From Candidatus Nomurabacteria bacterium (GTDB taxonomy: Bacteria; Patescibacteriota; Minisyncoccia; Phycocordibacterales; UBA918): a stretch of DNA of 64,000 nt. The position numbers and the translations under genes are program-made. The stretch spans positions 80,502-144,501 of the forward strand of contig JACKGF010000002.1 of NCBI GenBank assembly GCA_020632095.1, read 5' to 3'. Each line of letters begins with the position of its first letter. Within the stretch, counting starts at the first letter, position 1. The notes beneath the pieces are model-generated. The model was not told the DNA's origin, did no database searches, and was given only the letters and a program-made list of their open reading frames with translations. Positions 1 through 33,023 of the stretch are shown here, in pieces.

Positions 1-152
1 GTGTCCGTGCCCTAGAGGACATCTACGTTACCCTTAAGACCAAGTAGACAGTAATTTGTCTTAGTACAAAAATCGCCTGACAAGGGCGATTTTTGGGTAT
101 TTGTTCTATGCGCGTCGATGAAATGCCCTAGGAAAGGGGCATTTCACTGACG

Positions 153-390
153 TACATTCACAATATGCCCTTCGGGCATTTGTTCACTGAATCAGAATTT
201 GCCTAAGGCAAAACAAATTCTCGTGCACAGCATACAGAAAATACATTCCTTTCAGTCATTATTTTCTAGCAATATACATTCACAATATGCCCTTCGGGCA
301 TTTGTTCACTGAATCAGAATTTGCCTAAGGCAAAACAAATTCTGATATACATTCACAATATGCCCTTCGGGCATTTGTTCATGCAAAAGG
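153..390 (+). repeat. Tandem ~69-bp repeat (2 full copies 153-221 and 275-343, truncated third 348-390), each with hairpins atgccc-ttc-gggcat and ttgcc-taa-ggcaa
   Basis: Direct sequence identity between copies; irregular spacing (122 and 73 bp); flanked by further GC-rich hairpins at 71-95, 121-144 and 393-416. Confidence 0.8.
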
Positions 391-890
391 GCGCCCCCTC
401 CAGGGCGCCCTTTTACTTTGTACAACGTAGAGTTCGGCTTGCGCGCTTTGCTCGTAGCCTCGAGCTAAGTATTTTTATACTTCACCACCGCACAAACCTA
501 GTTACAGATTCTCATATTGAGCCCAATAGTCAACAAGTTAGAATGTTGTTGTTTTTGGACTAGGTTGTGAATAACTTGTGAATAAGTACTGTATAACTAT
601 TGGGATAAGTTATGTATATATCGAGGGATAAATTATGTACAAACCTTAGTGATAAAAGTTGTAAAAACACCCTTTTAATCTCTTTTTTCTACTTAAATTA
701 ATTAGTACCTAACTCCTCCATTTTCACCAGATAAAATAAATCATACTCAATCTAAAAACACTAGCATTTTTTGACTTTTTTGCTATGATAGTGCGCACTT
801 ATCAGATAGTCTAAAAACTAGAGAGTTAAGTATGACCAGTCGCTAGAAATTCAATCAACCCATCACCCCAAAATTTCTACCGCACAAAAT

Positions 891-962
891 GGTCCCATCG
901 TCTAATGGTTAGGACGCCAGGTTTTCATCCTGGAAATCGGGGTTCGATTCCCCGTGGGATCA
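891..962 (+). tRNA. tRNA-Glu (anticodon TTC), no encoded CCA
   Basis: Cloverleaf: acceptor ggtccca/tgggatc, anticodon arm ccagg-ttttcat-cctgg, T-arm cgggg-ttcgatt-ccccg; followed by terminator hairpin 978-998 + T-run. Confidence 0.85.
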
Positions 963-977
963 CACGTAGAAAAATGA

Positions 978-1005
978 GCACACCTTTCCGAGGTGTGCCA
1001 TTTTT
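978..1005 (+). terminator. Rho-independent terminator after tRNA-Glu (gcacacct-ttccg-aggtgtgc + cattttt)
   Basis: 8-bp GC-rich stem, 5-nt loop, T-run. Confidence 0.6.
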
Positions 1006-1010
1006 CTTGT

Positions 1011-1060
1011 GTGATCCCACGAGTAAACCTGCTGGGAGCAGGTTTACGGGGGAATCGAAG
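1011..1060 (-). repeat. Inverted copy of tRNA-Glu T-arm/acceptor 3' end interrupted by 27-nt perfect palindrome (gtaaacctgct-ggg-agcaggtttac)
   Basis: gtgatcccac...gggggaatcgaag is the reverse complement of ttcgattccccgtgggatcac; palindromic insert sits between the T-stem and acceptor segments. Confidence 0.8.
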
Positions 1061-1362
1061 CTGTTGCCAGCCAGATTATGAACGGAGTGAAATAATCAGG
1101 CGACAACGGATACTGGTTGTGTAACAACCGATACTCCCCATGGGATCACAATATATTTTCTTAACAAAAACACCGCCAGGTGTTTTTGTTTTGGAAAATA
1201 ATTGTGATCCCACGAGTAACGTGCCCTGCGGCACGTTACGAGGGAATTGCACTCAAGAGTACTTCCGTTTTACGTTCCTTTCAGTCATTAAAAACTAGGG
1301 CGCCCGCCGGAGCGATGTGAGGAGCTTGCGACGAACGAGTGAGGTGTGTCCCGCGGCACTTG
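1061..1362 (+). repeat. Modules A (1061-1130), B (1131-1252: direct tRNA-end copy, terminator hairpin, inverted tRNA-end copy with variant palindromic insert) and C (1253-1362: inverted repeat ttcctttcagtca...tgactgaaaggaa); re-occur at 3385-3603 and 3806-3875
   Basis: Near-identical second copies downstream of the high-GC ORF; internal hairpins. Confidence 0.8.
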
Positions 1363-1760
1363 CTAGTCTGTGACTGAAAGGAAACGACCTAGAATTCAAG
1401 GAGTGAAACGACTATGAATACGGAAATGCCCTTGTGGTGAAAATAGCTTTGTGACCGTCAGGATCATTCCCTGTCAGAACTATCACCTATATGAACAAAC
1501 TGGATAACATTACAACACGAAAAAATTTTCCGGAGGACCGACCTCCGTAGTTTGGCTAGTCTGTGACTGAAAGGAAACGACCTAGAATTCAAGGAGTGAA
1601 ACGACTATGAATACGGAAATGCCCTTGTGGTGAAAATAGCTTTGTGACCGTCAGGATCATTCCCTGTCAGAACTATCACCTATATGAACAAACTGGATAA
1701 CATTACAACACGAAAAAATTTTCCGGGGGACTTTTCCGGAGGACCGACCTCCGTAGTTTC
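1363..1760 (+). repeat. Tandem duplication of a ~192-bp unit (1363-1554, 1555-1760; third copy 3604-3795); each unit has a strong SD (aaggag) + 8-codon mini-ORF MNTEMPLW + terminator hairpin (ccggagg-accga-cctccg + tagttt)
   Basis: Copies near-identical; copy 2 has a 13-bp internal duplication; mini-ORF ATG at 1414, 1607 and 3656. Confidence 0.85.
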
Positions 1761-1903
1761 TTCTGGAGGCTAGCGTACTCTTCGGGAGTGAGGCTATCAA
1801 TGTATCCACGGTTTTGTATTGAGTCGATTTTTACCAAGGCCCAGTAGTCTGTTAATTCGTGTGCGTGCACGACAAAATCTCTTAGAATTTTTTCATTTTT
1901 CAT
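1703..1903 (-). CDS. Hypothetical small protein (66 aa); 3' end lies in repeat unit, no clear SD
   Basis: ORF only; low-complexity-free sequence but no recognisable domain. Confidence 0.25.
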   Translation of the reverse strand: MKNEKILRDFVVHAHELTDYWALVKIDSIQNRGYIDSLTPEEYASLQKKLRRSVLRKSPPENFFVL

Positions 1904-2153
1904 ATTGTTTATTTTTTAATTGTTAGCGCTGACGCGCATGAGTAAAGTTTGCGAGAACTTGAAAGAATCCTACACCAAATCACCGCAGAAGAATATGACT
2001 AAACATAGAAGAATCACAAACGTGAAAAATGTGGTGTAGTTTGATTTTTTCTGCATTTCTAAGAGTTGCAAATCTTTTAAAACACCGTCGTTTGTGGCAT
2101 AGTGTCTTTTGGAACGCACATTGACGTATCCACCAACGCCTAAGGAGGCTCAA

Positions 2154-3185
2154 ATGACTGGTGCACTACTAAAAATGAACGCCTTCGTCCAGGTGGCGGA
2201 GGGTATGCATGTCTACTACGACTGCCCGATGATGTCCGGCGAAGATTTTCGGAGCGATCAGTTTTTCAAGGAAAACCGGGGTAAAACCGGCCTCGTGAAG
2301 GGCTTCCCTGAGAAGTTCGTCGGGCCGCTTGATTCCAAGGGCCGTCTGCCGGGTGTCTACATCAAACCCGGCTACATCCATGTGCAGTTTGAAGGCGAGG
2401 AAAAAGTTCACCAAGGACTCAACCTCCACTATTTCATTCTGCTCGACGTCGGCCAAACCGTCGTGCCCGAAGCGAGCCTCGAACACCAAAAGGTGCGCGA
2501 CTTGCCAGAGGCGATCGAGTTCTGGCCCGGTGATCAGGTCTGCAAAGTAAACGACCTTCTTCGGACGGTTCGTTTCGTCGAGGATGTCCGCATCGGAGAC
2601 AACGGCGCGCTGATTTACGTCCTCGCCGAAACTGCCGAAGCGAAACAGCAACGGCAGGATGAAAAGGAGGCGGAGATCGCTCGTCGGCGTGAAGAAGCCA
2701 AGAAGAGTGACGACCCGCTTGCGGGATTTCCACTCGGACTCGGTCTCATGGACCATCCGCGCACTGAATCGCGCAAGGCCAATGACCTCACTCTCGTGAC
2801 TCGGGGGAACGTCTATCACCTCTATCACGATCCTGCTCAACTCGCTTTTGCTTCTTCAGAACAGGAAGTGGGATTCTGGGCGAAGGACGGCATCTCGACG
2901 ACTGTCTATGGCGGCGGCAACCACATGCCTCGCTGGGAATGGCCGATCGAGAAAGCCAGGGAGATGGTCGAGAAGGGCGATGGCGACCTCGTGATTGCGT
3001 CCAAGCAATACGAGAATGTCATTGTCACTGGCCGTGGTGGCGACTTCAAGGTTCGCAAACTGCATTCCTGCTTCGCCCAGCATCGCGAGCGAGTGCGTGC
3101 ACTTTCGCTCAGCTTGGCCAAGCCTCCGGTCGAGGAAGACATTTCCTTCGGCAAGAGGGCCATGGCCCTGCTCGGCGACGACTGA
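2154..3185 (+). CDS. Hypothetical protein (~344 aa), high-GC (~57%) foreign gene; likely start at ATG 2154 preceded by aaggagg
   Basis: Long ORF with strong SD; GC far above window average (many antisense ORFs in the same span are GC artefacts); followed by GC-rich terminator 3209-3242. Confidence 0.7.
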   Translation: MTGALLKMNAFVQVAEGMHVYYDCPMMSGEDFRSDQFFKENRGKTGLVKGFPEKFVGPLDSKGRLPGVYIKPGYIHVQFEGEEKVHQGLNLHYFILLDVGQTVVPEASLEHQKVRDLPEAIEFWPGDQVCKVNDLLRTVRFVEDVRIGDNGALIYVLAETAEAKQQRQDEKEAEIARRREEAKKSDDPLAGFPLGLGLMDHPRTESRKANDLTLVTRGNVYHLYHDPAQLAFASSEQEVGFWAKDGISTTVYGGGNHMPRWEWPIEKAREMVEKGDGDLVIASKQYENVIVTGRGGDFKVRKLHSCFAQHRERVRALSLSLAKPPVEEDISFGKRAMALLGDD

Positions 3186-3206
3186 TGCCAATTGGAAAGT
3201 TCGACT

Positions 3207-3242
3207 CAGCGCGACCCCTCACCCGGGTCGCGCTTTTTCTTT
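3207..3242 (+). terminator. Rho-independent terminator (gcgcgaccc-ctcaccc-gggtcgcgc + tttttcttt)
   Basis: 9-bp GC stem plus T-run immediately after stop of 2154-3185. Confidence 0.7.
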
Positions 3243-3384
3243 GGTTACCAAGATATAAAAATCGTCAAAAAGTGTCACTTTTGTCACTTTTTGCTCCTCT
3301 CGAGAAGGGTCAAGACTGATTTAAACTGATTATTCACGAAAGCCTTACAGGGGAATGTATTATCATGGTTCCATCACGATTCGG

Positions 3385-3962
3385 CTCACAATATATTTTC
3401 TTAACAAAAACACCGCCAGGTGTTTTTGTTTTGGAAAATAATTGTGATCCCACGAGTAACGTGCCCTGCGGCACGTTACGAGGGAATCGCACCCCAAGAG
3501 TACTTCCGTTTTTACGTTCCTTTCAGTCATTAAAAACTAGGGCGCCCGCCGGAGCGATGTGAGGAGCTTGCGACGAACGAGTGAGGTGTGTCACGCGGCA
3601 CTTGCTAGTCTGTGACTGAAAGGAAACGACCTAGAATTCAAGGAGTGAAACGACTATGAATACGGAAATGCCCTTGTGGTGAAAATAGCTTTGTGACCGT
3701 CAGGATCATTCCCTGTCAGAACTATCACCTATATGAACAAACTGGATAACATTACAACACGAAAAAATTTTCCGGAGGACCGACCTCCGTAGTTTATATA
3801 GACGACTGTTGCCAGCTAGATTATGAACGGAGTGAAATAATCTGGCGACAACGGATACTGGTTGTGTAACAACCGAAATTCCCCGTGGGATCACAAATCA
3901 ACCGGCCGAAATGTGAATACATTTCGGCCGTTGCTGTTTGTAGGTCCCACGGGGAATCGAAG
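3385..3962 (+). repeat. Second copy of modules B-C-D-A plus direct tRNA-Glu 3'-end fragment (3876-3895), terminator-like hairpin (3907-3930) and inverted tRNA-end copy without insertion (3942-3962)
   Basis: Sequence identity to 1061-1760; aaattccccgtgggatcaca and its reverse complement aggtcccacggggaatcgaag. Confidence 0.8.
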
Positions 3963-4251
3963 AAAGCTTCTGGCGAAGCGGACGAGAAAGCCTTCTCGTC
4001 CGCACAGAAGCGGCGGGTGAAAAAGTCTGGGGGACTTTTGCAAGAGGTTGCCAGCTCGCAAGAGCGACAACCTGAACAGAATTCGTAAAATTCGCGTAAC
4101 ACAATATTTTGGAAGCTTTAGCTGAAGAAAATATTGATGTGAAGGTGACCGATTCCCTGTGGGATCACAAATTTTTAAGCTTGTTTTACAACACTATTTC
4201 AGACGACCTCACAAGGACATTGGACCCGTGATAAAATAATGGAATGATTAA

Positions 4252-4914
4252 TACGTTAATTTTGATATAAACGGAGTTCTCAACTCACCCACAGAAACAT
4301 CTAGTGAGAAAAATATCTTAAATTCATTTGGTGAAGTCATCTCAAGATTGCAAAATTCTTGTTTGGAAGCAGAAAAGAATAGGGGCGAGCTTTACGAGAT
4401 TTACCACAAATCTTCAGTAAATCTTATTTCTAGAGATGAGATGATAGACAAAATGTCTAACCTTCTATTGTGTAAACCACAAGAACTAGTTAAATGTGTC
4501 CACAATATTTACTCTGAAGGTTCAGTTGAAAACGTGAGTTTGTATGACTTTCTGGAGGCCATATCTAAGAGTAAACTTTTAAAGATTGGCTTACTATCAA
4601 CTCAATTTCCGTTATCAAAGGATATGCTGGTTCCCAAAAAGTATTACGATAACTTTGACTCACTTGGAATTTCTTGTGACAGCGAAATTCATCTCAAAAA
4701 ACCTGAGGGAGCTGTATTTGCAAAAATTATTAAAGAACTAGATACAAAACCAGAAAATGTGATTTTTGTTGATGACCAACAAAAATGCGTTGATGCTGGC
4801 AACCAGTTAGGGATAAATTCAGTTCAATTCATTAATAATAAACAATTAGCAAAAGACTTGGTTAGATTTAAAGTTCCTGGCGAAATAGGTCCATTCCTTC
4901 ATTTTCTTGACTAA
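4252..4914 (+). pseudogene. HAD-superfamily hydrolase-like gene lacking a canonical start; motif I remnant (FDINGV) lies in-frame upstream of first possible start (TTG 4348)
   Basis: C-terminal HAD motifs (KKPEG.., VIFVDDQQ) in the listed ORF 4348-4914; in-frame extension back to stop at 4249 contains YVNFDINGVL but no ATG/GTG/TTG start; flanked by att-like direct repeats 4151-4169 and 4927-4945. Confidence 0.5.
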
Positions 4915-5081
4915 GTGGCTCCAAATCATTCCCCGTGGGATCACAAATTTTTAAGCTATATACAACAACGTATTCTAGAGCACCCTAAGGGAGATTGGAA
5001 CCTTATAGAGGACCACATTGAACTATATTGGTTTTTCTGTATTATAAGAGTAGTAAAGAAATCACATAAGGAAACAAACAC

Positions 5082-5447
5082 ATGAAAGTATATTGTGCTT
5101 CAAAAAGCAAATACGGGCCACTTTGGAAAGAATGGGAAGATAATGGAGTCCAAGTAACTTCCAGCTGGTTGGAGAAATTTGACCAAGGTCGTCTCCCTGA
5201 CCAAACAGAACACTGGGACCAAATTCTTGAGGACATTCAAGGCTCAGATGCATTACTACTCTATTCTGAGGAAGGAGATGTTCAGAAAGGAGCATTGGCT
5301 GAATTCGGCATTGCGTTTGCTTTAGGAAAAAAGTTATTTTATGTTGGACCTACTGAAGGTTCTCTCACTGCAGTGGAGCACAAAAATGTTCAGCATTACC
5401 CTGACTTGAAAACATTCTTCAGCGAAGTATGTGGAATCGCCCAATAA
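5082..5447 (+). CDS. Nucleoside 2-deoxyribosyltransferase-like protein (121 aa)
   Basis: N-terminal KVYCAS and C-terminal ..GALAEFGIAFALGKKLFYVG resemble the 2-deoxyribosyltransferase fold signature (E-x-G-x-A-x-A-L-G-K); SD aagga upstream; terminator 5466-5518. Confidence 0.45.
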   Translation: MKVYCASKSKYGPLWKEWEDNGVQVTSSWLEKFDQGRLPDQTEHWDQILEDIQGSDALLLYSEEGDVQKGALAEFGIAFALGKKLFYVGPTEGSLTAVEHKNVQHYPDLKTFFSEVCGIAQ

Positions 5448-5465
5448 AATAACCTCAAGGGTCCA

Positions 5466-5518
5466 AGCCGTCCGCAAAAAGCCAGTCTATGGACTTGCTT
5501 TGCGGACGGCTTTTGTTT
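5466..5518 (+). terminator. Rho-independent terminator (agccgtccgcaaa...tttgcggacggct + tttgttt)
   Basis: 13-bp stem plus T-run. Confidence 0.6.
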
Positions 5519-5652
5519 ATACAATTCCACTCCTTCAGCTTCCCCACCTATTGGTTCCAAATCACACCCCTTAGGGTCACTAATTTTCGTGCTAGCACAA
5601 GAAGCATACAATATATTATCCCTGTCTCTGTATACCAAGCACCCACATAACC

Positions 5653-6753
5653 CTACAAAGCACACCTAAGATAGGGTTCGATACGGTTGGCGACGATCTC
5701 ATATCCATCATCATCTGGATGAACCAGATCACTCATCAATGATGGATGTCCTATCACTCCCATGAGTACATCTGGAACATAGATAGACCCTGTTGTCTCC
5801 GCTACTTGCTTATATCTGCCTTCTAAATCCTCATCGTATATTCCACCTCTAAAACCAACCACAATAACTATGGCGCCAGTACTTTGGATTCTTTCTATGA
5901 CTGTAGTTAGATTCTCAAAAGTTTCATCTTCTGTAATACCTGCAGAGTCAGGTATCTTACCTGTTAGTTTCAAAACAATAATCTGGAACATTTCATTATA
6001 ATTTAGTTTCTCAATACCCGCCTCAAGATCTTCATAAAAACGGCTGATTATATCATTACCCCCAAGCCACACAATGACAACTGAAGGATTGCGCGACAAA
6101 ACATCACTCTGTAATCGGACTAAAGAATCTTCAGTTGTGTCACCAGATTTACCAGCGTTAATGATTGGTACACCTACTTTTCGTGACAACTGACTGACAT
6201 AATCCTGCCCATTTGTCGCCCCAACACCAGCCGTTAAGCTGTCGCCGAAGGCAATAATCGGACCACTCTTAGGAGGGTAATTAGTAACCTGATTCAAGTA
6301 CGAGACTGAACATTGACCACCCCCACCAGTTTCAGTAACTACGGTAAAGGGGTTTGATTTGGCGACTCGGGTGTATCCGCTGTTTTTGAAATAACGAAAC
6401 TCGTAACTTCCTGGTTCTTTTGGTGTAAATTCAATTGTATTGTTATTTCCGCTGACGTACTTCCATGACTGGTAGCGTTGGTCACTATCACCCACCCGAT
6501 ACAGACCTATCCAATCACCACTCAAATTGGCTCCCTCGGGGGTAGTCCAGGTAACAACAATAGATTCGTTGATGACAACATCACTATCAGGAGCAGAGAG
6601 CGTATAGTCAGCTGTTGATTGAGCATTTCCAGTTAATGGAAACAAACTAAAAGCAACTAAAAGTAGTGAACTTAAAAACCATAACCTCGAAAAATTGAGT
6701 ATTGAGTATTCATAGTCGTTGATTAAACTTACGAGCTGTAGCCCGTGACACAA
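5653..6753 (-). CDS. Secreted SGNH/GDSL-family hydrolase (lipase/esterase) with N-terminal signal peptide and beta-sandwich-like domain
   Basis: GDSL block IIAFGDSLTAGVG, block III VIVWLGGNDI, C-terminal DLVHPDDDGYEIVA (DxxH); hydrophobic N-terminus. Confidence 0.7.
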   Translation of the reverse strand: MCHGLQLVSLINDYEYSILNFSRLWFLSSLLLVAFSLFPLTGNAQSTADYTLSAPDSDVVINESIVVTWTTPEGANLSGDWIGLYRVGDSDQRYQSWKYVSGNNNTIEFTPKEPGSYEFRYFKNSGYTRVAKSNPFTVVTETGGGGQCSVSYLNQVTNYPPKSGPIIAFGDSLTAGVGATNGQDYVSQLSRKVGVPIINAGKSGDTTEDSLVRLQSDVLSRNPSVVIVWLGGNDIISRFYEDLEAGIEKLNYNEMFQIIVLKLTGKIPDSAGITEDETFENLTTVIERIQSTGAIVIVVGFRGGIYDEDLEGRYKQVAETTGSIYVPDVLMGVIGHPSLMSDLVHPDDDGYEIVANRIEPYLRCAL

Positions 6754-6962
6754 CCACTACACCACTGATGTCCTCTACGGCATATGCTACCTTATAGTCT
6801 AGTCATAATTTAGATGTTGTCAAAGAAATGAAATAAAGGGTCAGAGGGTCTGACTGGTGGAGTCAGTAGCTCTCTTTATTTAGTGCTCTAGTGCATATAT
6901 AGTCCTCTTTTATTTTTCTTTTTTTACTTGTTCAAATAACGATCTCTATTTCACATTGAATC

Positions 6963-7406
6963 ATGAATAAATTCTATGTGGTATATTACAAATTAATGAA
7001 TTTAGATAAATTTCCGCATAATAGCAAATCCCCACTCGAAGGTGAGTTATTGGACCCTGAAGAACTTGACCCTGAGTTTCTCAGAAAAATGACGGAGTTA
7101 CCCGAAGTAGTTGCAAATTTTTACATAACAGCAGCCAAAGATACTAAATTATTAAAAATACTATACGGAAGTACTGACTACTTTGTAGATAAAACAAATC
7201 AAGAACTGGTTGATAAGTTTCTTAGTGTAAACCCAGAGTACAAAACAATTTTAGAACAAATGAAAGAAATTGATATGTTGGATAAAGGAGACACACCTAT
7301 CTTTGCACAATATCACAGAGATCCTTTTGACGACGCAAGAGATATTACTCCTCAAAACGAAACCCCTATAATCTCAACAAATGAAAATAAATTACCTAAA
7401 CCATGA
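6963..7406 (+). CDS. Hypothetical protein (147 aa), AT-rich islet
   Basis: ORF only. Confidence 0.4.
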   Translation: MNKFYVVYYKLMNLDKFPHNSKSPLEGELLDPEELDPEFLRKMTELPEVVANFYITAAKDTKLLKILYGSTDYFVDKTNQELVDKFLSVNPEYKTILEQMKEIDMLDKGDTPIFAQYHRDPFDDARDITPQNETPIISTNENKLPKP

Positions 7407-7469: not shown

Positions 7470-8726
7470 TTATGTTAATAGTAATTTGCCTGACACGTCT
7501 AACTTTACATTTTGTCCATTTTTTTCTGCAATTGCAAAACCACTATCATCCCTATAAGACCCTACAGTGTCATATTCGCCAACAACATCCCCTGTTGTTG
7601 TATCAACAATCATAAATTTATCCTCAGGTGTCCCCACAATCCACAAATTACTTTCTTTTGCATAATTTCCAATGTTCTGATGATTTGGGTACTGATCAGC
7701 AAACAATTCCCTATCCTTAACCACGTCGTAAAGACCAAACGATTCATTCCCATATTCCACAACTGCAGTCTGACCTACTACTTCAACTAAGTTTTTAAAT
7801 TCTACAGAGGAATAAGAACCTGTCTCAGGATTGATTATCCGAAGTTTATCATATGGACCAGACGCTAGCCCTACACCATTTTTCCTACCAATCATCCATG
7901 TTCCTCCAAGCTCTCTTCCAAGCCTTTCTGTTGAGCAGATTTGGTCTCCCTTGGAATTTACCAGACTCTCTACACCTTGATCATCCTTAAGAATACTTAA
8001 CCCTTCTTGCATACCTGCTACAACACTACTGTATCCATTTTCTCTGGCGAAATGGGCGGTCTCAACAGCACGTAAAACCCGATCCTGGTTTTCACCATCT
8101 GTAACTAACCCTGAAAGTCCTTTTGATGAATTAATAAAGTAAAAATCAGATCTTAAGTTGTAAGTGCGATTACCATATTCCAAATCAAACTCGCCCACAG
8201 TAACATGAGACGATGATGGTTCAGTATTAAAAGAATACTTTCCCGCTTTTTCAAAATCAACACCATTTACGGACTCAACTTGCTCAACAGATGTTGGTTC
8301 AACAGTATTTGTTGAATCAACATTTATTTCAAACTCACTTACTGCCTTCTCACCAGAAAATTCTTTTATTTTATGACCAAAAACCGTAGCTACTGCTGGA
8401 AGATCTTCAGCAATTTGTCTTCGAGCATCTTCACCTTCTTCAGAAGTATAATCGAAAGCGGTTTTTAAAAGTTTGACTAGCTCACCAATACCCATTCCAA
8501 AACTTTCTTGCACTTTATCGGGGTTACTACCTCGCACTATATTATTTATACCGTCAGGGTCAGATGCAAATGAAATAATAACTTTAAAATCAGATAAATA
8601 ATTAGAACTTTCTTGAGAAACAACTTCCATCCTAGAGCCATCAGTATCTACACTCAATTCAACCGGACGCTCTTCCTCCCCATTACTAGGTACTGCTGAC
8701 ATTGGTCTATTAAAACTTTCTTTCAT
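7470..8726 (-). CDS. Hypothetical protein (418 aa), AT-rich islet
   Basis: Long ORF, no recognised domain. Confidence 0.5.
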   Translation of the reverse strand: MKESFNRPMSAVPSNGEEERPVELSVDTDGSRMEVVSQESSNYLSDFKVIISFASDPDGINNIVRGSNPDKVQESFGMGIGELVKLLKTAFDYTSEEGEDARRQIAEDLPAVATVFGHKIKEFSGEKAVSEFEINVDSTNTVEPTSVEQVESVNGVDFEKAGKYSFNTEPSSSHVTVGEFDLEYGNRTYNLRSDFYFINSSKGLSGLVTDGENQDRVLRAVETAHFARENGYSSVVAGMQEGLSILKDDQGVESLVNSKGDQICSTERLGRELGGTWMIGRKNGVGLASGPYDKLRIINPETGSYSSVEFKNLVEVVGQTAVVEYGNESFGLYDVVKDRELFADQYPNHQNIGNYAKESNLWIVGTPEDKFMIVDTTTGDVVGEYDTVGSYRDDSGFAIAEKNGQNVKLDVSGKLLLT

Positions 8727-8899: not shown

Positions 8900-9682
8900 A
8901 TGAAATCCTACTCTTTTTTTTCACCCACTTCGGCTGAGTTTATACATTCTTATGCTGACGAACATAATGTCAGTGATTTTTTTACCGACTTATACACCAA
9001 CCCTCAAGAAGATAACTTGTCACAATCAGCAACAAAACCAATCTATGTCGTGGCTGATGGAGTAACCTTAGACTTCAAAAAATTACTATTGACTGGCAGA
9101 CCTTATCCTGACCCGTCACCAGCTGGTAATGTATCTAAAATATTTTGTAACGAAGTAGTATCTAAGGCGGAGGAGCTATATCCAATTTTCGAGGAAGAAT
9201 TAATTACTGAAACCTTTATTTATGCCAACAGTAAAGTTGAAGAGTACAACAAACAGGAAGGAGAAGTGATTATTTCTGGCAATGTGACTGGTAAGTTTTC
9301 GGCTACCGGTAGCTTCATGATCTGTAAAGACAACAAGGTCTTTTGGATGAGTATCTGTGACTCCTACTTTGCTCATTTTGACAAAAACATGAATTTAAAA
9401 TTTATATCTTCTGGATTATGCAACCCATATGCTGTTATTAATGGTGAACCTAGAATGGTAGATCGTATTGAGTCTGGTTCTTTTAATATTGACCTTGATG
9501 ACAGACTGTTTGTTTTCACTGACGGATTCTATCACTATGTTAAAGATAAAGATTTTCTTAATCTATTTCTTAATTTTGAAGACTCTTTAATTGAGAGAGT
9601 CGTAGATTTTTCGAAAGTCAAAACCCCAATTGATCCAGACAAATTTGGACACGAACGCTCCTTGATTGCAGTAAAAATCTAG
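8900..9682 (+). CDS. Hypothetical protein (260 aa); weak PP2C-like motifs (VVADGV ... VFTDGF)
   Basis: ORF; motif resemblance only. Confidence 0.45.
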   Translation: MKSYSFFSPTSAEFIHSYADEHNVSDFFTDLYTNPQEDNLSQSATKPIYVVADGVTLDFKKLLLTGRPYPDPSPAGNVSKIFCNEVVSKAEELYPIFEEELITETFIYANSKVEEYNKQEGEVIISGNVTGKFSATGSFMICKDNKVFWMSICDSYFAHFDKNMNLKFISSGLCNPYAVINGEPRMVDRIESGSFNIDLDDRLFVFTDGFYHYVKDKDFLNLFLNFEDSLIERVVDFSKVKTPIDPDKFGHERSLIAVKI

Positions 9683-9864
9683 CAATTTTTGCCTCGACCG
9701 ATTACGACCTAGGTTAACAGTTCAAGAAATGAGGCACAATATTTACACACAACCATTCCATAATTCGACAATACAAAATGAAATATAAAAAACGATAAGA
9801 TCGGAATCTTCTCGTTTTAATGTTTTTGATCTAATACTCAGAACAAATCTGCGTTAATGTACAT

Positions 9865-10134
9865 GTGTACGGCAATACCAGCCTCACAACCCAGCACAAT
9901 GATTGGTATCCATCGCAAATGACTCATGAAAGTGTAGCAGCCCTTAGCTATCCTTATCAAAACAAACCAGCCGCAACCATCACTGGTTTTGACTTGCAAA
10001 ACCTAATATACCCCTCAACCATCACCAGAGCATACACAAACGCAACCAGCGACACAGTGCCTACTCAACCACTAATCAGACTATTTTCACTCAACACCTT
10101 TCTTCTTAATAATTTAAAGACCAAAATCAGCTAG
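9865..10134 (+). CDS. Hypothetical small protein (89 aa)
   Basis: ORF only. Confidence 0.2.
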   Translation: MYGNTSLTTQHNDWYPSQMTHESVAALSYPYQNKPAATITGFDLQNLIYPSTITRAYTNATSDTVPTQPLIRLFSLNTFLLNNLKTKIS

Positions 10135-10214
10135 CTAAGATTTTGTAAAGCTGTTGAATACTTTATAAATCTTTAACAAACACCCTGTCGCTATTCACTA
10201 CTATTTCTGCTAGG

Positions 10215-10799
10215 ATGAAAAACATGAAAATTACGTCGGCAAAATTTATAACCGGTTTGGTGGGTGATAATGAACTTCTGAGAAATGGAACTCCACAAAT
10301 CGCTTTTATTGGTCGTTCAAACGCTGGAAAGTCCAGCTTGTTGAATTCTCTGACTAATTCTAAGAAATTAGCGATCACTAGTAAAACTCCTGGGCGAACC
10401 AAAGAGATTAATGTTTTTTTGATAAACAATACCCACTACTTTATGGACCTACCAGGCTATGGGTTTGCCAAGGCAGGGGCACAGACCTTAGAAAAACTTA
10501 GTTCACTTATCTTTTGGTACCTGTTTGAATCTAAAAACAATCCAAAAGTTGTCATACTAATTGATGCCTTTGTGGGACCAACAATTGATGATTTGGCCGT
10601 ACTAAAAGAATTAGAAGAAACTGGCAAGGAAATTGTTGTGGTTGTAAATAAGGTAGATAAAATAAAAAGTTCACAGTACCAAAACCAACTTAAAAAACTC
10701 GATGAACAACTCCCCGGGCACAAACTCTTCCCCTACTCTTCCACTAAGAAGATTGGTATAGATGAATTACGCAACGAACTTTTATCAGAGTTACCCTAG
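10215..10799 (+). CDS. engB: Ribosome biogenesis GTP-binding protein EngB/YsxC
   Basis: P-loop GRSNAGKSSL, G-motifs, typical EngB length and N-terminal ITSAKFI. Confidence 0.85.
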   Translation: MKNMKITSAKFITGLVGDNELLRNGTPQIAFIGRSNAGKSSLLNSLTNSKKLAITSKTPGRTKEINVFLINNTHYFMDLPGYGFAKAGAQTLEKLSSLIFWYLFESKNNPKVVILIDAFVGPTIDDLAVLKELEETGKEIVVVVNKVDKIKSSQYQNQLKKLDEQLPGHKLFPYSSTKKIGIDELRNELLSELP

Positions 10800-11045
10800 A
10801 CCTAAAAAATGTTTGCTACATGTCAGACACCGACCTCAAATGAACTGAGCAAATTTTGCCAATAACCCAGTTTTACCAACTCCCTAAGCCCTAAGTCGGT
10901 CTTATCTTAGGAGGAATGAGACGACACCCTATCATAATTTCTTAGCACAAACAATTGATTATTGTCCAAAATATTAACCAAGATCTAAGATAGTTTAATG
11001 AGTAACATGCTATATTGATAGCCTATTAAATAAGACTTGTAGCCA

Positions 11046-11780
11046 ATGAAACTGATTTCACTTAATCTTGAAGGAAGACGGCACCTTGATACTGCCCTGC
11101 CTTTTCTTGAGAAAGAAAAGGCTGATTTATTGACCCTTCAAGAAGCTCCGGAAGAGATTGTACTCTGGCTTAAGGAACAGGGATATAAGACGACTTTCTT
11201 AGCACGATGTCTTAAAACTCAAGACGGTGTCCAGTATACTGACGGAGAAATTATTGCCAGCAAACAACCCCATCAGGCTGAAACCTTCTATTACTACAGA
11301 CCGAGTGATAGTATCTTGGAAGAAAACCTGAGTGACCGGCGGTTAACTAATGCACAAGGCTTGATTTTTGCGACCGTTGGAAACTACAAAATTGCTACCA
11401 CTCACTTCACTTGGCATCAACACGGCGAAATCGCCGGTGTTCACCAAACGACCGATATGAAAACTTTGTTGCAATATCTAGACACCAAACCCCCTCATGT
11501 TCTATGTGGTGATTTTAATATTCCACGATTATATAATTCACTCTACTCAGAATTAATTAGTCACTATAAAGACGAGATTCCTAAACACTACCTTTCAAGT
11601 CTTGATAGAAATTTACATAAACATGGCGCAAACGAAGAGATACAAAAATTATTCGACAGTTTTATGGTCGACTACGTGTTTACCCAGCCTCCCTACCACG
11701 CTACTAACACTAGATTAGAATTTGGAGTGAGTGACCACGCGGCAGTGATAACCACCTTGTCGGTGGATTCTGTGTCATAA
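11046..11780 (+). CDS. Endonuclease/exonuclease/phosphatase (EEP) family protein
   Basis: N-terminal LNLEG...LQEA and C-terminal GVSDHAAV motif. Confidence 0.6.
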   Translation: MKLISLNLEGRRHLDTALPFLEKEKADLLTLQEAPEEIVLWLKEQGYKTTFLARCLKTQDGVQYTDGEIIASKQPHQAETFYYYRPSDSILEENLSDRRLTNAQGLIFATVGNYKIATTHFTWHQHGEIAGVHQTTDMKTLLQYLDTKPPHVLCGDFNIPRLYNSLYSELISHYKDEIPKHYLSSLDRNLHKHGANEEIQKLFDSFMVDYVFTQPPYHATNTRLEFGVSDHAAVITTLSVDSVS

Positions 11781-12779: not shown

Positions 12780-14040
12780 TTTTCAGTAATAATAGATTGA
12801 GTTTATCAGACTTAATCTATCATTATGAATCGAGGTGTCTACGTGTTTTCTCAAATTATGGAGTTTGTCGATGATTATGAGTTTAGAAAATGTGTGGAGA
12901 GATATAATGGTGAGTACCGCATTCGAAAATTATCTTGCCGACAACAATTCACAGCCATGATCTTCGGTCAGCTGGCATACCGGGAAAGTCTTCGCGATAT
13001 TATCACCTGTCTGGGTGCTCACGAAGAAAAGTTGTATCACCTTGGCTTTAGACAAAAAATCGCCCGCAACACCTTGGCCTCAGCCAACCAGAAAAGAGAC
13101 TGGAGAATCTACCGAGACCTAGCGATGGTGCTCATTGCCAGAGCCAGACCAATGGATCCAAAGTCAAAAGAAATCATTGAGCTTGATTTAGATGCGACAG
13201 TCTATCTGCTAGACTCAACGGTGATAGATTTGTGTTTAAGTCTGTTCGGCTGGGCCCGGTTCGATGCTCAACATTCTTCGATTAAGCTGAACATGCAACT
13301 TGATTTAAATGGCTCTATTCCTGCGTTTTTCACTATCACTGAAGGCAGAGTGAACGACGTGAATTTCCTAGATGAGATTACGTTCGAGCGTGGTGCGTAC
13401 TACGTCATGGACAAAGGGTATCTTGATTACGAACGTTGGCACAAGATACATCAAGCTGGAACATTCTTTGTTACGCGAGCTAGGCATAACATGTCGGTAC
13501 GGCGTTTGTATTCTAATGTGGTACGTAAAGAAACTGGTATTCTTTGTGATCAGATTGTTGTTCTGTCAGGGAAGAAAACCATGTGGCGTTATCCTGATAA
13601 GATGCGGAGGATAAAGTACCGCGATGCTGAAACCAATATTGCGTATGTCTTCGTTACTAATGATTTTAACAGTGATGCTTTGGTGATAGCGGTATTGTAT
13701 AAATACCGCTGGCAAGTCGAACTGTTTTTTAAATGGATTAAACAACATTTGAAGATTAAGTCTTTCTGGGGCACCAGTGCCAATGCTGTGAAGACGCAGA
13801 TTTGTCTGGCACTATGTGCTTATCTACTGATGGCTATCATTAAAAAACGGCTCCGGATTGAGCTTGATTTATACAAAATGTTACAGATTACGTCAGTGTC
13901 TCTATTAGACAAAAAGCCTTTAAAAACACTGTTTTCTAGGACTTTGGTACAATCTGATGTCAAGGGTGGGCAAGACAGCCTTGGTTTGCAATGGTTTTAA
14001 ACGGGACACTAGTGGGAGCAGTCTACATTTTCTTTATAAC
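12780..14040 (+). mobile_element. IS4-family insertion sequence (approximate ends)
   Basis: Contains transposase 12825-14000; ends not resolved. Confidence 0.5.
12825..14000 (+). CDS. IS4-family DDE transposase (DUF4372 N-terminal + DDE_Tnp_1)
   Basis: N-terminal MEFVDDYEFRK...QQFTAMIFGQL (DUF4372-like), DDE region with DKGYLDYERW and C-terminal YRWQVELFFKWIKQHL. Confidence 0.8.
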   Translation: MNRGVYVFSQIMEFVDDYEFRKCVERYNGEYRIRKLSCRQQFTAMIFGQLAYRESLRDIITCLGAHEEKLYHLGFRQKIARNTLASANQKRDWRIYRDLAMVLIARARPMDPKSKEIIELDLDATVYLLDSTVIDLCLSLFGWARFDAQHSSIKLNMQLDLNGSIPAFFTITEGRVNDVNFLDEITFERGAYYVMDKGYLDYERWHKIHQAGTFFVTRARHNMSVRRLYSNVVRKETGILCDQIVVLSGKKTMWRYPDKMRRIKYRDAETNIAYVFVTNDFNSDALVIAVLYKYRWQVELFFKWIKQHLKIKSFWGTSANAVKTQICLALCAYLLMAIIKKRLRIELDLYKMLQITSVSLLDKKPLKTLFSRTLVQSDVKGGQDSLGLQWF

Positions 14041-19188: not shown

Positions 19189-19265
19189 GTGAGCGATTAG
19201 CTCAGCTGGTAGAGCGCTACATTGACATTGTAGAGGTCACAGGTTCAAGTCCTGTATCGCTCACA
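19189..19265 (+). tRNA. tRNA-Val (anticodon GAC)
   Basis: Acceptor gtgagcg/cgctcac, D-arm agctcagctggtagagc, anticodon arm ctaca-ttgacat-tgtag, T-arm cacagg-ttcaagt-cctgt. Confidence 0.85.
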
Positions 19266-19289: not shown

Positions 19290-19450
19290 AAACGCTTTTT
19301 AGTAAGGTGCTACATTGACATTGTAGAGGTCACAGGCTAAATCAGTTTGGGAAACTGATTTAGGAGGTTGCCTAGTATTTTGCAAAAATACTGACAACCT
19401 GTACTGAACTCGTAGAGTTCAAGTCCTGTATCGCTCACAAAGTTTTTATT
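19290..19450 (+). repeat. Truncated tRNA-Val duplicate (anticodon arm to 3' end, no 5' half) carrying an ~80-nt structured insertion in the T-arm; 33-bp direct repeat with the intact tRNA 3' end
   Basis: gctacattgacattgtagaggtcacagg + [insert with hairpins aaatcagttt/aaactgattt and gtatttt/aaaatac] + gttcaagtcctgtatcgctcacaaagttttta. Confidence 0.7.
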
Positions 19451-30387: not shown

Positions 30388-30704
30388 AGTTATCAGTTTA
30401 AACACCCACAACACAAAACACGTATCCAGTCTGCACGGAGAGAGATTTATCTGAGCATGCCTAGCAGCAACACCCAGAAATGCACACCACTTACGTATTC
30501 TGTGTTATAGGTGCTAGAACATAAAACTCTATCACGAGTCAAGATTGACTCTGATAATCTTGACTGAAGTACTTTATCTCTTTGAAAATTCCAATCAGGT
30601 TGAAATTCTCAAAAGATAGGATGAGTCTGGTAACACAGACTCATCCCCAAAGTTTGATTTTTAATTCTGTTGCCACGTGGGTTATCTCCCGCGCCGAAGC
30701 TTAT

Positions 30705-31053
30705 TCATATGCGTCTGCGCACCCGAGCCAACCACTCGTTGAGGAAGCTCTCTGAGAGTCCTTCCCCGACAAGCTCAATGGTCTCGGGTACTTCTTCGAC
30801 AATAATGCCGACTCTTTTTTGAGTCAGTCGGCCAATATTGCCTCTGAAGTACGGCACCAGATCGAATAAGCGACCTTCGCTTAGTTCGACGAGGATACGG
30901 GCAGGCATTGTCAAATATGCCCAGCCGTTGCCAGGGGTGTAGATGTCCCACCCCTCAGCACGCAACCGTCCAAGGTGTCCCGGGTCTTGCCGAGAATACG
31001 ATTGGACAGCTCCGCCGTCACGACGCTCAGTGTAACGAACAGTAAACTTCATA
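30705..31053 (-). CDS. Hypothetical protein (~115 aa; probable start MKFTVRY with GGAG SD), high-GC islet
   Basis: ORF with SD; GC ~58-60% versus ~42% background. Confidence 0.45.
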
Positions 31054-31232
31054 GCATCTCCTTTATTTACCATGTGATGCAGTCACTTAGGGCAGACTAC
31101 TACTCCGTTAAATATTGAATTCCCATCACAGAACCCATTTAAACTTTCAAATCATTACACTTAAAAACCTCAAATGGATGGGCGAACATTACCAATGTTC
31201 GCCCAAAAAAACCTTGTGACCTTTCGGGCAGG

Positions 31233-31661
31233 TCACTTCTCCTCGGGCGGTGGCCCGAGTCGACGGGTGAGGAGTTCGATTTTCTCGATCTCCTCATAGT
31301 GGGAGAAAGCGAGAATATCTCGCCCTCCCTCATCTTTGCCGGCCACGATGGCCCGCCCGCCCTCGTCGCGCGCAAACTGCGCGCGAATCAAGGCAACACC
31401 CAGCTCGCGCTCGGCGTTCACCAAGCGTGAGAGCACCGGGAACGGTGCCGTCGCTTCGACGGCGACCACCCGGTCGCCGTCGGCCTGCAGGTGCTCAATG
31501 AGCGCCTTGACCGCCCCTACGGGATCTTCCCCGTAGCGGATGTCTTCGGTCACGACGCGCACGTCGTCGCCGAAAACGGCTTTGAGACAAGCCATCCGGT
31601 CAGCATCGACCGGATGACGCGTGATGCGAGCTACGATTTTTTTCTGCATTTTCTTCTCCAA
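31233..31661 (-). CDS. Hypothetical protein (142 aa), high-GC islet
   Basis: ORF; same strand/islet as neighbours. Confidence 0.45.
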   Translation of the reverse strand: MEKKMQKKIVARITRHPVDADRMACLKAVFGDDVRVVTEDIRYGEDPVGAVKALIEHLQADGDRVVAVEATAPFPVLSRLVNAERELGVALIRAQFARDEGGRAIVAGKDEGGRDILAFSHYEEIEKIELLTRRLGPPPEEK

Positions 31662-31816
31662 CCCCAGTTAACCCCGAGGTGCGGGTGTGCAGAAGATTCT
31701 GCGCAATCTATCAACCAACAATCACTTGCAGGCTGAATAGATTGAAGAAGCCAGCGACCAAGCGAGCTTCTTCAATAACCGTGCAGACTTTTACGGAGTC
31801 TGCGAACCGGAGACGT

Positions 31817-32053
31817 CTACCAAGACATCTCGTGATACACTGACCGAGCCTCCTCCTCGGTCAGCATGTAAACAGGCTTGTCCCAAAAGGGACAGCCGTG
31901 GCGTTCGGCCAACAAGTGGCCGAGATTGCGAATTTGATCGCGGGGGTTGGTAGCCCCCGCGATGGTGGCGACGTCGGTGCCGTCGACTTTGACGGTGACT
32001 ACGCCACCGTCAAGCTCGATCGTCAGACCGAGCCGAATAGGCAAATTTTCCAT
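31817..32053 (-). CDS. Hypothetical protein (78 aa), high-GC islet
   Basis: ORF. Confidence 0.4.
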   Translation of the reverse strand: MENLPIRLGLTIELDGGVVTVKVDGTDVATIAGATNPRDQIRNLGHLLAERHGCPFWDKPVYMLTEEEARSVYHEMSW

Positions 32054-33023
32054 TTTTATCTCCTCGCCACGTCATGTGGCACTATGTCCCGACTAGAATA
32101 GTCAGGACGTTTGAATTTTCTTCACCGACACCATGCCAATGAAGACATCTTTAGGCAACTCTCTCTCCGAGTTCCCCATGTGAGCACACCTGATTCGCAA
32201 TATGATTTCATTTATATTTGATAGTGATGTACTCATATAGAGAAGCAACCTCTCTCCAGTTGCTAGCCATGGGGTGGCGGCGGAGCCGCCACCCGTTTCT
32301 ATTTATTGTTACCACTGGTATTTACCCAGCAGTTTTGTGGACAAAGACATTTTTTGGTTTATCTTTGTCCTAATATTCCTTTAGTGGTGTCTGTTTTACC
32401 TAAAATTAGGTTCAACAAAACCGCCACTAAATTTGTTGTCAAAGTCTCTCTCCTCTCTCTCCTACGCCACAATCTATTCGCTTATAGACTTTGTGGGGTT
32501 ACAAGGTGCAAAGGACATTTCTAGATAAAAAACTTGGTTAGAATTTTTTATCCAGCCGATGTCCTTCCGACCAATTGGTCAGAAAATCACGGTTGATACT
32601 GTTTGGTAGCGACTCGAAGTCTCGACCACCAAGGTGATGGGTTTGCGGCCTATCACCAGTATCGTGCAAACGAATCTCAAGTTTGATACAAGTAGTTCCT
32701 TCCGCTCCCTGCTAGCCACACTTTCGGCTGTGGTCACCGTCCAGCTCTCAAATCTGAGGACTGGAGCGAGCTTCTCGGCTTGTATTTATCTCTTTGATTC
32801 CCTGTGAGGTACTCTCTCCGAAATTTGGATTAGAGCGTTGCTCTTTTCTTCTTTCTTAACTGTCTATATCATAACAGAGTTTGGATGTATTGTCAATCAT
32901 ATTGAAACAATACTGTCATGCGCAACCATAGTATTCAGCCATAATTATATACATATTTTCACTATACACACCTTTTTGTCATAAGTTTATTGACAAAATA
33001 AACTTAAGAATTATACTTAGAGC

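Follow-up and report, generated by a model that had tools for sequence, protein, structure and literature searches.

The stretch analyzed here, referred to as the window, comprises 64,000 nucleotides (nt) of a contig from a Candidatus Nomurabacteria bacterium (JACKGF010000002.1, positions 80,502 to 144,501), and near its left end it carries a gene of foreign composition within an array of small units behind a tRNA-Glu gene. The gene (2154-3185, + strand) encodes a soluble protein of 343 amino acids (aa), deposited at NCBI as 'hypothetical protein' (MCB9814811.1, H6784_05380; Candidatus Nomurabacteria) on a 225-kb contig. Its G+C (GC) content is 0.570 (0.663, 0.372, and 0.674 at the three codon positions, GC1 to GC3), compared with 0.417 for the whole window, while 51 other open reading frames (ORFs) of the window average 0.419 in GC (standard deviation (sd) 0.049) and 0.379 in GC3 (sd 0.081), which places the gene at z = +3.1 and +3.6, respectively. 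Synonymous codon usage lies beyond the host range, as its distance is 0.194 and the most deviant of 25 host ORFs reaches 0.142; CTC makes up 53% of the Leu codons (10% in the host) and GGC 56% of the Gly codons (18% in the host). The high GC is restricted to the coding part, as 200-nt bins over 2201-3200 range from 0.555 to 0.59 and the bins beside the gene fall to 0.415 (2001-2200) and 0.425 (3201-3400). By direct reading, a Shine-Dalgarno (SD) sequence, AAGGAGG, lies at 2142-2148, 5 nt ahead of the ATG at 2154, and an intrinsic terminator follows at 3208-3234 (+ strand), consisting of a 10-bp stem in which 8 of 10 pairs are G-C and a T-run, TTTTTCTTT; the terminator is conserved at three homologous loci (L001, L008, and L009). 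These figures bear out a first-pass annotation made from the letters alone, which had put the GC at about 57%, some 15 points over the background (41.7% when computed over the window), had pointed to the strong SD and the GC-rich terminator, and had suggested a comparison of codon usage with core genes. It had likewise noticed numerous spurious ORFs, and at least seven more ORFs of at least 60 aa do overlap the gene span on both strands as a result of the high GC; the homologues and the substitution pattern described below identify the + frame from the ATG at 2154 as the real one.

The term 'orphan', applied to the gene at first, does not fit, because a search at E ≤ 1e-3 in a 90%-clustered database returns 24 homologues, with identities from 91% for the best down to 30%. 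A family profile built from these homologues and run against 1.84 billion sequences retrieves 273 representatives at E ≤ 1e-3, with 84 at ≤ 1e-30. Wherever the source of a member is named, it is a Patescibacterium (Nomurabacteria, Saccharibacteria, Adlerbacteria, or 'Patescibacteria group'). The alignment of 25 sequences has 20 invariant columns distributed along the full length, and the ratio of nonsynonymous to synonymous substitution rates (dN/dS) of the window copy is 0.11 against L001 (91% identical), 0.18 against L008, and 0.14 against L009. Judged by these sequence comparisons, the gene is thus genuine, functional, and under purifying selection. No recurrent neighbor genes emerged when the ORFs within 4 kb of 11 family loci were compared all-against-all, the only matches being an OmdA-like ORF (L001 and L009) and an unannotated ORF of ~140 aa (L008 and L018). 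Relatives of the family are absent from IMG/VR, the INPHARED phages, and the PLSDB plasmids; none of the 25 members matches a PADLOC model, and 1 of 25 matches PHROGs (E 0.009). A phage or plasmid origin of the gene was rejected, given that IMG/VR, INPHARED, and PLSDB hold no relative and that the repeat DNA around the gene matches no phage record. The family, which counts at least 273 cluster representatives and only Patescibacteria among its named members, is unannotated but confidently foldable.

The AlphaFold2 model, computed from the 25-sequence alignment, has a predicted local distance difference test score (pLDDT) of 84.9 and a predicted template modeling score (pTM) of 0.77. It runs from a beta-rich N-terminal half (strands within residues 11-157) through a charged helix (161-184) and a low-confidence linker to an alpha/beta C-terminal domain, which reaches a pLDDT of 87 when modeled separately. 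Foldseek finds no global match to the full model in the PDB and no structural match to the C-terminal domain (146 residues) alone, and the local matches, to the 53BP1 tandem Tudor, AGDP3 Agenet, eS4, YorP, FeoA, and NdhS, are weak and involve single barrels (E 0.06-0.3, template modeling (TM) scores 0.1-0.6). In BFVD, the best fold match is an uncharacterised siphovirus protein at E 2e-4, marginal and partial in that it covers 150 columns only. Pfam gives nothing usable for the query, the 25 aligned members, or 10 distant relatives, and no usable PDB sequence-profile match to the family was obtained. The protein is predicted to lack transmembrane segments (19-residue hydropathy of at most 0.97), and its isoelectric point is 5.8 overall and 9.1 for the C-terminal domain, which carries a conserved KLHxCFAQHRERVR helix. 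Structure prediction, suggested in the first-pass annotation as a route to function, has delivered a confident model, accompanied by weak local barrel matches only. Compared with Tudor, Agenet, SH3, and KOW barrels (53BP1, AGDP3, eS4, Bacillus subtilis YorP, FeoA, and NdhS), the short-strand N-terminal half is similar in that it aligns locally and places the conserved aromatics Y69, F79, and Y155 in the barrels of the model, but it has no sequence match to them (Pfam, PDB, PHROG, and PADLOC), and the C-terminal 146 residues match no structure. With low confidence, the N-terminal half can be read from the model as SH3/Tudor-like beta-barrels. Because such barrels with conserved aromatics are joined to a basic C-terminal domain bearing the HRERVR helix, the protein might, at a similarly low level of confidence, be a non-enzymatic cytoplasmic binding or adaptor protein with nucleic acid or protein as its partner.

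The extent of the transferred unit can be read from the closest relative. The window and L001 have only 2093-3295 (88% identity) and 3296-3389 (80%) in common, and the rest of the 11 kb of L001 has no match to the window. Within the conserved 5' region (2093-2153, + strand), where the homology to L001 begins, an extended -10-like element, TGGCATAGT, lies at 2095-2103 and is followed by the 5' untranslated region (UTR) and the SD; the element, of the form TG-n-(C/T)ATAGT, is recognizable together with the UTR, the SD, and the terminator in L001, L008, and L009, and from its sequence it probably acts as the promoter. Since the shared unit holds a -10 element, a 5' UTR, an SD, an ORF, and a terminator, what moves is a self-sufficient expression unit. 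Accordingly, the cassette, which had been equated with the interval bounded by the flanking repeats, is better described as 2093-3389, from the promoter to a terminal segment here called the tail. Upstream of it lies an AT-rich spacer (1760-2092, 37-41% GC) that is not common to L001, and a doubtful 66-aa ORF on the minus strand (1703-1903), which runs into a terminator of the repeat module D' and is uncalled in the public contigs L010 to L012.

Downstream of the gene, a 41-nt block (3255-3295, + strand) shows no differences among the window, L001, and L010 (100% identity), against ~88% identity in the DNA around it. The block can be read as a -35-like GTGTCA and a 17-nt spacer. In L001 (1314-1366), it is followed by TAAAAT, an ATG 6 nt on, and an ORF of about 78-90 aa; in L010 (1965-2030), by TAGAAT, an ATG 6 nt on, and a different ORF. 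The sequence thus suggests that the block is part of a leaderless promoter. In these relatives, the transferred unit is a two-slot module of which the second slot is variable; in the window, both the -10 and the ORF after the block are missing, and the tail (3296-3389, + strand; 80% identical to L001 1649-1742) comes directly. The tail terminates in a degenerate sequence resembling a tRNA 3' end, GGTTCCATCACGATTCGGCTCAC.

To place the composition of the gene in context, gene GC was compared with flank GC at 17 family loci. The gene exceeds its flanks at 17 of 17 loci, by a median of 4 points and usually by 1 to 5; on average, the family genes have 54.4% GC and the flanks 48.8%. Four loci stand out in this difference, namely L025 (+15.8), the window (+15.5), L001 (+12.2), and L009 (+9.3). 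Other copies are host-like, such as L031 (41.5 vs 39.8, GC3 0.338) and L032 (47.0 vs 46.3), and the values at L029 (50.9 vs 50.2), L003 (56.2 vs 53.7), and L008 (59.0 vs 56.8) are also close. The subclade of the window copy, with identities of 64-91%, includes L008 (67% identity), which sits in a contig of 56.8% GC, and the further misfit copies L001 and L009, which sit in contigs of 45-46% GC. The pattern suggests that a gene lineage of ~57% GC has entered several low-GC hosts.

The chromosomal position of the family also varies. In L003 (metagenome-assembled genome H51-bin099), the homologue (9778-11094) stands between ftsZ and ftsA, in the opposite orientation, and these two genes are adjacent in L001; the ftsZ-ftsA gap is an unusual place for an accessory gene. 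In L016 (Saccharibacteria), the homologue lies between tRNA-Phe and tRNA-Arg in a neighborhood syntenic with 38.8-44.6 kb of the window (LepA 62% and MurJ 45% identity), and the window lacks the family gene at the corresponding spot, 38.8-39.4 kb. Taken together, the outlier GC, the relative in a 57%-GC contig, and the different chromosomal sites make horizontal acquisition from a higher-GC Patescibacterium a well-supported reading of the sequences, and they point to its direction and its recent date as well. This agrees with the recent acquisition from a high-GC donor proposed at first sight, and neither normal GC and codon usage nor conserved synteny throughout the candidate phyla radiation (CPR) was found. 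As a gene that is both mobile and under purifying selection, it presumably confers a selectable accessory function, and it neatly illustrates how genes pass between Patescibacteria that differ in base composition.

The surroundings of the transferred unit are organized by tRNA-Glu(UUC) (891-963, + strand; ARAGORN, Rfam tRNA 65.7 bits), whose 3' end, TTCGATTCCCCGTGGGATCACA, recurs downstream. The last 17 nt of this tRNA have nine matches at ≤ 3 mismatches, compared with 0.07 expected, and eight of the nine fall within 948-4945; among the tRNAs, only 3' ends are repeated, never 5' ends. The copies are 17-21 nt long, and their identity extends back into the T-arm. Direct copies stop at 1150, 3895, 4169, and 4945 (0-2 mismatches in 17 nt), and degenerate ones at 3389 and 5581. 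In the left part of the array, direct (D) and inverted (I) copies alternate, in the order D948, I1010, D1134, I1203, D3375 (degenerate), I3443, D3879, I3941, and D4153. Six units of 186, ~2240, 506, 274, 776, and 636 nt are delimited in this way. Unit e1 (965-1150) consists of hairpins and a repeat module termed A. Unit e2a (1151-3389) holds the repeat modules B, C, D, and D', the AT-rich spacer, and the high-GC unit, and e2b (3390-3895) holds B-C-D and A. The non-coding unit e3 (3896-4169) forms, with the palindrome at 3879-3961, a segment (3879-4169) bounded by two tRNA-3'-end copies, one inverted and one direct (fold z = -9.4). Unit e4 (4170-4945, + strand) has a single ORF for a HAD-like hydrolase (4348-4914, GC 33.7%) and ends in an exact copy of the tRNA 3' end, whereas e5 (4946-5581, + strand) has a single 121-aa ORF (5082-5447), with a weak match to nucleoside 2-deoxyribosyltransferase, and ends in a degenerate copy. 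Units e4 and e5 have in common ~75 nt of left-end homology and the right end GGYTCCAAATCA, but their cargo is unrelated.

At four of the boundaries, the paired copies form palindromes. The first, P1 (942-1060), combines the tRNA 3' end and an inverted copy of it with two hairpins, one resembling a bidirectional terminator and the other interrupting the inverted copy; the single-stranded DNA (ssDNA) fold of P1 has an energy of -54.4 kcal/mol (z = -14.5), with terminator matches at 978-998 on both strands. Each of the four palindromes encloses a different terminator-like hairpin (ssDNA fold z -8 to -14), and the body with the high-GC gene (1220-3374) lies between two copies of one of them, palindrome B. 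The region as a whole is rich in such structures, with 20 terminator-like hairpins in 1-6000 against 5.8 expected and enrichment in 1-890. This leading segment is non-coding from the end of the preceding gene (45, + strand) to 890, and it carries a 69-nt two-hairpin repeat three times upstream of tRNA-Glu (153-221, 275-343, and in part 348-416), as well as a solo copy, TACATTCCTTTCAGTCATTA, of a 16-20-nt terminal inverted repeat of module C at 242-261.

Related duplications occur at other tRNA genes. In the window, part of tRNA-Val(GAC) (19191-19264) is present a second time behind the gene, up to 19448; the 28 nt from the anticodon arm to the T-stem appear again at 19309-19337, and the T-loop-to-3'-end part plus 10 nt of flank at 19417-19448, the pieces being separated by an 83-nt two-hairpin insert with the module A skeleton GTTGCC...GACAAC..TACTG. 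In L032 (2512-2763), an exact duplicate of the last 19 nt of tRNA-Ala, GATCCCCCACTGGTCCACA, occurs 178 nt downstream, with a GC-rich non-coding insert between them, and the family homologue stands immediately downstream of this duplication. Overall, a tRNA gene is found at most 1.2 kb away at 5 of 17 family loci, against ~11% expected (P = 0.03). Beyond the tRNA ends, no cross-genome homology was found among the small non-coding units (window e1 and e3, L001, and L032).

The repeats on either side of the gene are built from the same modules. Module A is a 91-nt repeat (1061-1151 vs 3806-3896, 94.5% identity), whose left copy (1061-1150, + strand) contains the hairpins GTTGCC...GACAAC and GGTTG...CAACC and ends in the tRNA-3'-end copy CTCCCCATGGGATCACA. 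The left repeat (1146-1759, + strand) consists of palindrome B (1134-1219), C (1273-1385), D (1362-1553), and the extra copy D' (1555-1759), D having been tandemly copied (1362-1538 vs 1555-1731, 99.4%). The right repeat (3386-3896, + strand) consists of B-C-D (3386-3795), 10 nt, and module A (3806-3896), which ends in an exact copy of the tRNA 3' end. The two B-C-D copies (1146-1553 vs 3386-3795) are 98.8% identical over 410 nt, in line with the earlier view that the same modules flank the gene as direct repeats; they are, however, components of the unit array anchored on tRNA-Glu rather than the ends of the cassette itself. At the other family loci, no convincing flanking direct repeats were found, save a 65-nt hairpin repeat in L001. 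In L019 (Adlerbacteria), a 27-nt direct repeat (7931-7957 and 9021-9047, 81% identical) brackets the homologue 1 kb from tRNA-Glu(CTC); this weak pair could stem from duplication of a promoter/SD segment or from chance.

The 410 nt of B-C-D code for nothing but an 8-codon mini-ORF, plus a 65-aa ORF in the right copy alone, and a composite transposon or a cassette bounded by insertion sequences (IS) does not fit, as the flanking repeats carry no transposase. Module C (1262-1390 and 3503-3632) is a GC-rich element of ~115 nt closed by 16-bp inverted repeats, GTTCCTTTCAGTCA and TGACTGAAAGGAAC, and resembles a miniature inverted-repeat transposable element (MITE); as RNA, it folds with z = -2.1 (+ strand) and -3.1 (- strand). 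Rfam, run permissively over 1-7000, detected only the tRNA and nothing matching module C, and the module C pattern is absent from IMG/VR. Module D (1362-1553) includes an SD with the mini-ORF and a minus-strand terminator, and it does not fold better than its shuffles. In its copies (1398-1440, 1591-1633, and 3640-3682), AAGGAG is followed 10 nt on by the 8-codon ORF MNTEMPLW*, and the equivalent module of L001 has AAGGAG and then a 6-codon ORF, MFKVDS*. From its sequence, the mini-ORF of module D could possibly be a leader peptide, or else a coincidence.

The arrangement is reproduced in public data. The gene is found unchanged in contigs from five other samples and assemblers, joined at 99.9-100% identity to the low-GC upstream DNA and/or the repeats seen in the window; L011 (1586-3526) and L012 (1479-3326) both span the low-GC upstream DNA, and L013 (2009-3584) and L014 (2009-3415) both reach the right-hand repeat. 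The exception in structure is L010, which departs from the window after 3295 into a different downstream junction and whose left end joins 3340-3603 (tail, B, and C, with right-copy variants) to 1555 onward (D', spacer, and gene); the other overlapping contigs match the window arrangement. The path of L010 crosses a repeat of 177 nt (99.4% identical), longer than the assembler k-mer of 141, and is therefore a possible graph artefact.

Elsewhere in the window, a second high-GC island (30700-32100) reaches up to 0.67 GC per 200 nt between flanks of ~0.35-0.40. It contains three small minus-strand ORFs, at 30705-31073 (122 aa, GC 52.8%), 31233-31661 (142 aa, GC 62%, GC3 72.7%), and 31817-32053 (78 aa), the first two of which have no Pfam match, and it is probably a further acquisition from a high-GC source. 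Three insertion sequences are also present, namely an IS4-like element (12825-14000; DUF4372 and DDE_Tnp_1), at a copy of which short-read contigs of other samples break, an IS30-like gene (48057-49004; HTH_38 and rve), and a compact IS200 (60598-61125) with a Y1 transposase (60626-61096) and end hairpins CACCAGAC...GTCTGGTG and CCACCAGC...GCTGGTGG. A link between this Y1 transposase and the tRNA-derived palindromes was considered and rejected, as its end hairpins (within 60610-61125) are unrelated to them in sequence.

Considering these features together, the explanation judged probable, at a level well short of certainty, is that a constrained gene of a Patescibacteria family was acquired horizontally and sits in an accretion array of integrase-less units behind tRNA-Glu. 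The gene would have arrived recently from a Patescibacterium of ~55-60% GC in a Nomurabacteria chromosome of 42% GC, as the self-contained expression unit 2093-3389 with its -10 element, 5' UTR, SD, ORF, terminator, and tail. Repeated site-specific integration into the 3' end of tRNA-Glu(UUC), the putative mechanism, would have stacked small units, which would then have decayed into integrase-less ones, a course that comes nearest to accretion of cis-mobilizable elements (CIMEs). The evidence for accretion lies in the copies of the tRNA 3' end, in the common ends and different cargo of e4 and e5, and in the duplications at tRNA-Val and tRNA-Ala. On this account, the B-C-D repeats would be the shared left arms of the neighboring units e2a and e2b, and they could drive loss of the gene through homologous recombination. 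If so, tRNA 3' ends would be accretion hotspots even in the reduced, ~1-Mb genomes of Patescibacteria; no account of such tRNA arrays in Patescibacteria was found in the literature searched.

Several observations weigh against this explanation. No tyrosine or serine recombinase is present among 60 scanned window ORFs of at least 120 aa (Pfam Phage_integrase and resolvase), a scan that reached leftward as far as window position 1 and found mobile-element genes only in the three insertion sequences described above, and the left border of the transferred unit (2093) lacks a sequence resembling an attachment (att) site. The inverted copies of the tRNA end (1010, 1203, 3443, and 3941), which form palindromes of 70-120 nt at four boundaries, are not predicted by simple accretion through a tyrosine integrase, and a sequence-specific integrase would not readily explain why module-A-like sequence lies behind two different tRNA genes. 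Among ten public contigs overlapping the region, none lacks the gene between the repeats, the deletion form proposed for checking in the first-pass annotation, and none shows an empty or excised site. With a dS of 0.42 between the window and L001 copies, both still at ~57% GC, 'recent' holds only in a relative sense. As for function, the suggested binding role leans on weak fold matches (E 0.06-0.3), and the C-terminal domain matches nothing.

Of the other explanations, the one that survives best attributes the B-C-D repeats and the gene to homologous (Campbell-type) recombination or segmental duplication instead of site-specific integration. In the former version, a circle with B-C-D and the gene recombined with a resident B-C-D, leaving the copies of the tRNA end as older, unrelated scars; in the latter, a resident A-B-C-D-A unit gave rise to a second copy and the gene unit inserted between the two, the tRNA-end copies again being older scars. 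The long flanks (410 nt, 98.8%) in the order A-BCD...BCD-A amount to a circular permutation, D is tandemly duplicated (1362-1553 and 1555-1759), no integrase is found among the scanned ORFs of the window, and the L010 junction of 3340-3603 to 1555 fits a circle or a tandem duplicate formed via the D copies, although this path may be the graph artefact mentioned above. What speaks for a specific site as the boundary is that the right end of the gene unit falls exactly on a degenerate copy of the tRNA 3' end, followed by palindrome B, and that L001 has the same tail and then a different hairpin repeat. Recombination or duplication is considered unlikely.

Less probable still, and doubtful on balance, is an integron-like or folded-hairpin cassette system on tRNA-Glu, in which a recombinase encoded elsewhere would act on the palindromes in their folded, single-stranded form, analogous to attC sites and to the folded attP of the CTX phage used by XerCD. 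Such a system would account for the alternation of direct and inverted tRNA-end copies, for the different terminator-like hairpin held by each D-I pair (fold z -8 to -14), for the enclosure of the high-GC gene body by two copies of palindrome B, for the fact that most units have one ORF or none, and for the conserved ends of e4 and e5 around different cargo. Similar small inserts behind tRNA-Val in the window and tRNA-Ala in L032 would also fit, the spacings being 186, 174, and 178 nt. However, an integron integrase or tyrosine recombinase is absent among the ORFs scanned in the 64 kb, and no intI lies next to the first unit, the 890 nt upstream of tRNA-Glu being non-coding. By direct reading, the core sites RYYYAAC/GTTRRRY are absent at the boundaries, the palindrome arms being GTGGGATCACA/TGTGATCCCAC; moreover, only direct copies bound e4 and e5, the cassettes have promoter-like elements and terminators of their own, the small units are without cross-genome sequence similarity, and no recombination product was observed. 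It is nevertheless tempting to speculate, by analogy and at similarly long odds, that Patescibacteria carry an undescribed tRNA-anchored cassette-capture system evolutionarily apart from integrons, in which promoter-to-terminator gene cassettes and non-coding units of ~175-185 nt may be inserted at tRNA 3' ends, possibly by a host Xer-type enzyme acting on folded hairpins. If this were true, the high-GC gene would be one cassette moving among Patescibacteria of very different GC, and if the palindromes were recombination sites and not scars or terminators, they would represent a new route of cassette exchange in a phylum with poorly known mobile elements.

That the high GC is an intrinsic, selected property of a vertically inherited family, with no transfer needed, is very improbable. 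The excess of gene GC over flank GC at all 17 loci and the family mean of 54.4% against 48.8% would suit it, but coding DNA is ordinarily a few points above mixed flanks, and the copies in the low-GC contigs L031 and L032 are fully host-like. Moreover, positions vary among lineages, the syntenic site in the window is empty, and just the cassette is common to the window and L001, the rest of the 11 kb of L001 being unmatched. Finally, a mis-assembly or binning chimera in a metagenome-assembled genome is scarcely credible: short-read assemblies do fragment here, the gene-bearing public contigs all being ≤ 2.1 kb and broken in repeats, but five independent assemblies from different samples and assemblers (L010-L014, 99.9-100% identity) confirm the junctions and exclude chimerism.

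Among known systems, integrons and, in particular, the cluster of attC sites lacking integron integrase (CALIN) (PMC4889954) resemble the array in part. The window has single-gene or empty cassettes between imperfect palindromes with conserved outer arms and variable centers, and, as in a CALIN, no integrase is adjacent. In contrast to integrons and CALINs, the arms in the window are derived from a tRNA, IntI is absent, the cassettes come with promoter-like elements and terminators, inverted copies are missing from the last two units, which have direct ones, and there is no match to Rfam or any other model.

The closer counterpart is tandem accretion, in which integrative elements and CIMEs pile up at a target gene's 3' end; the concept is defined in PMC5704250, and examples are ICESt1/CIME in Streptococcus thermophilus and the tRNA-Lys islands of S. 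agalactiae. The window array differs from these in that its units are very small (186-2240 nt), with several lacking coding sequence, no integrase occurs among the scanned ORFs of the 64 kb, there is no conjugation or mobilisation gene, inverted att-like copies make long palindromes at four boundaries, and related modules lie behind two different tRNA genes. Similar to such accretions, it has an intact tRNA gene at one end, direct repeats of 17-21 nt identical to the tRNA 3' end bounding successive units, units without integration genes, the most degenerate copy in the farthest position, and accessory cargo of mixed composition (HAD gene 34% GC, high-GC gene 57%). The unusual parts are limited to the palindromic tRNA-derived boundaries and the absence of a recombinase; a hypothetical gene gained by horizontal transfer and placed in a variable region next to a tRNA is of a kind already known.

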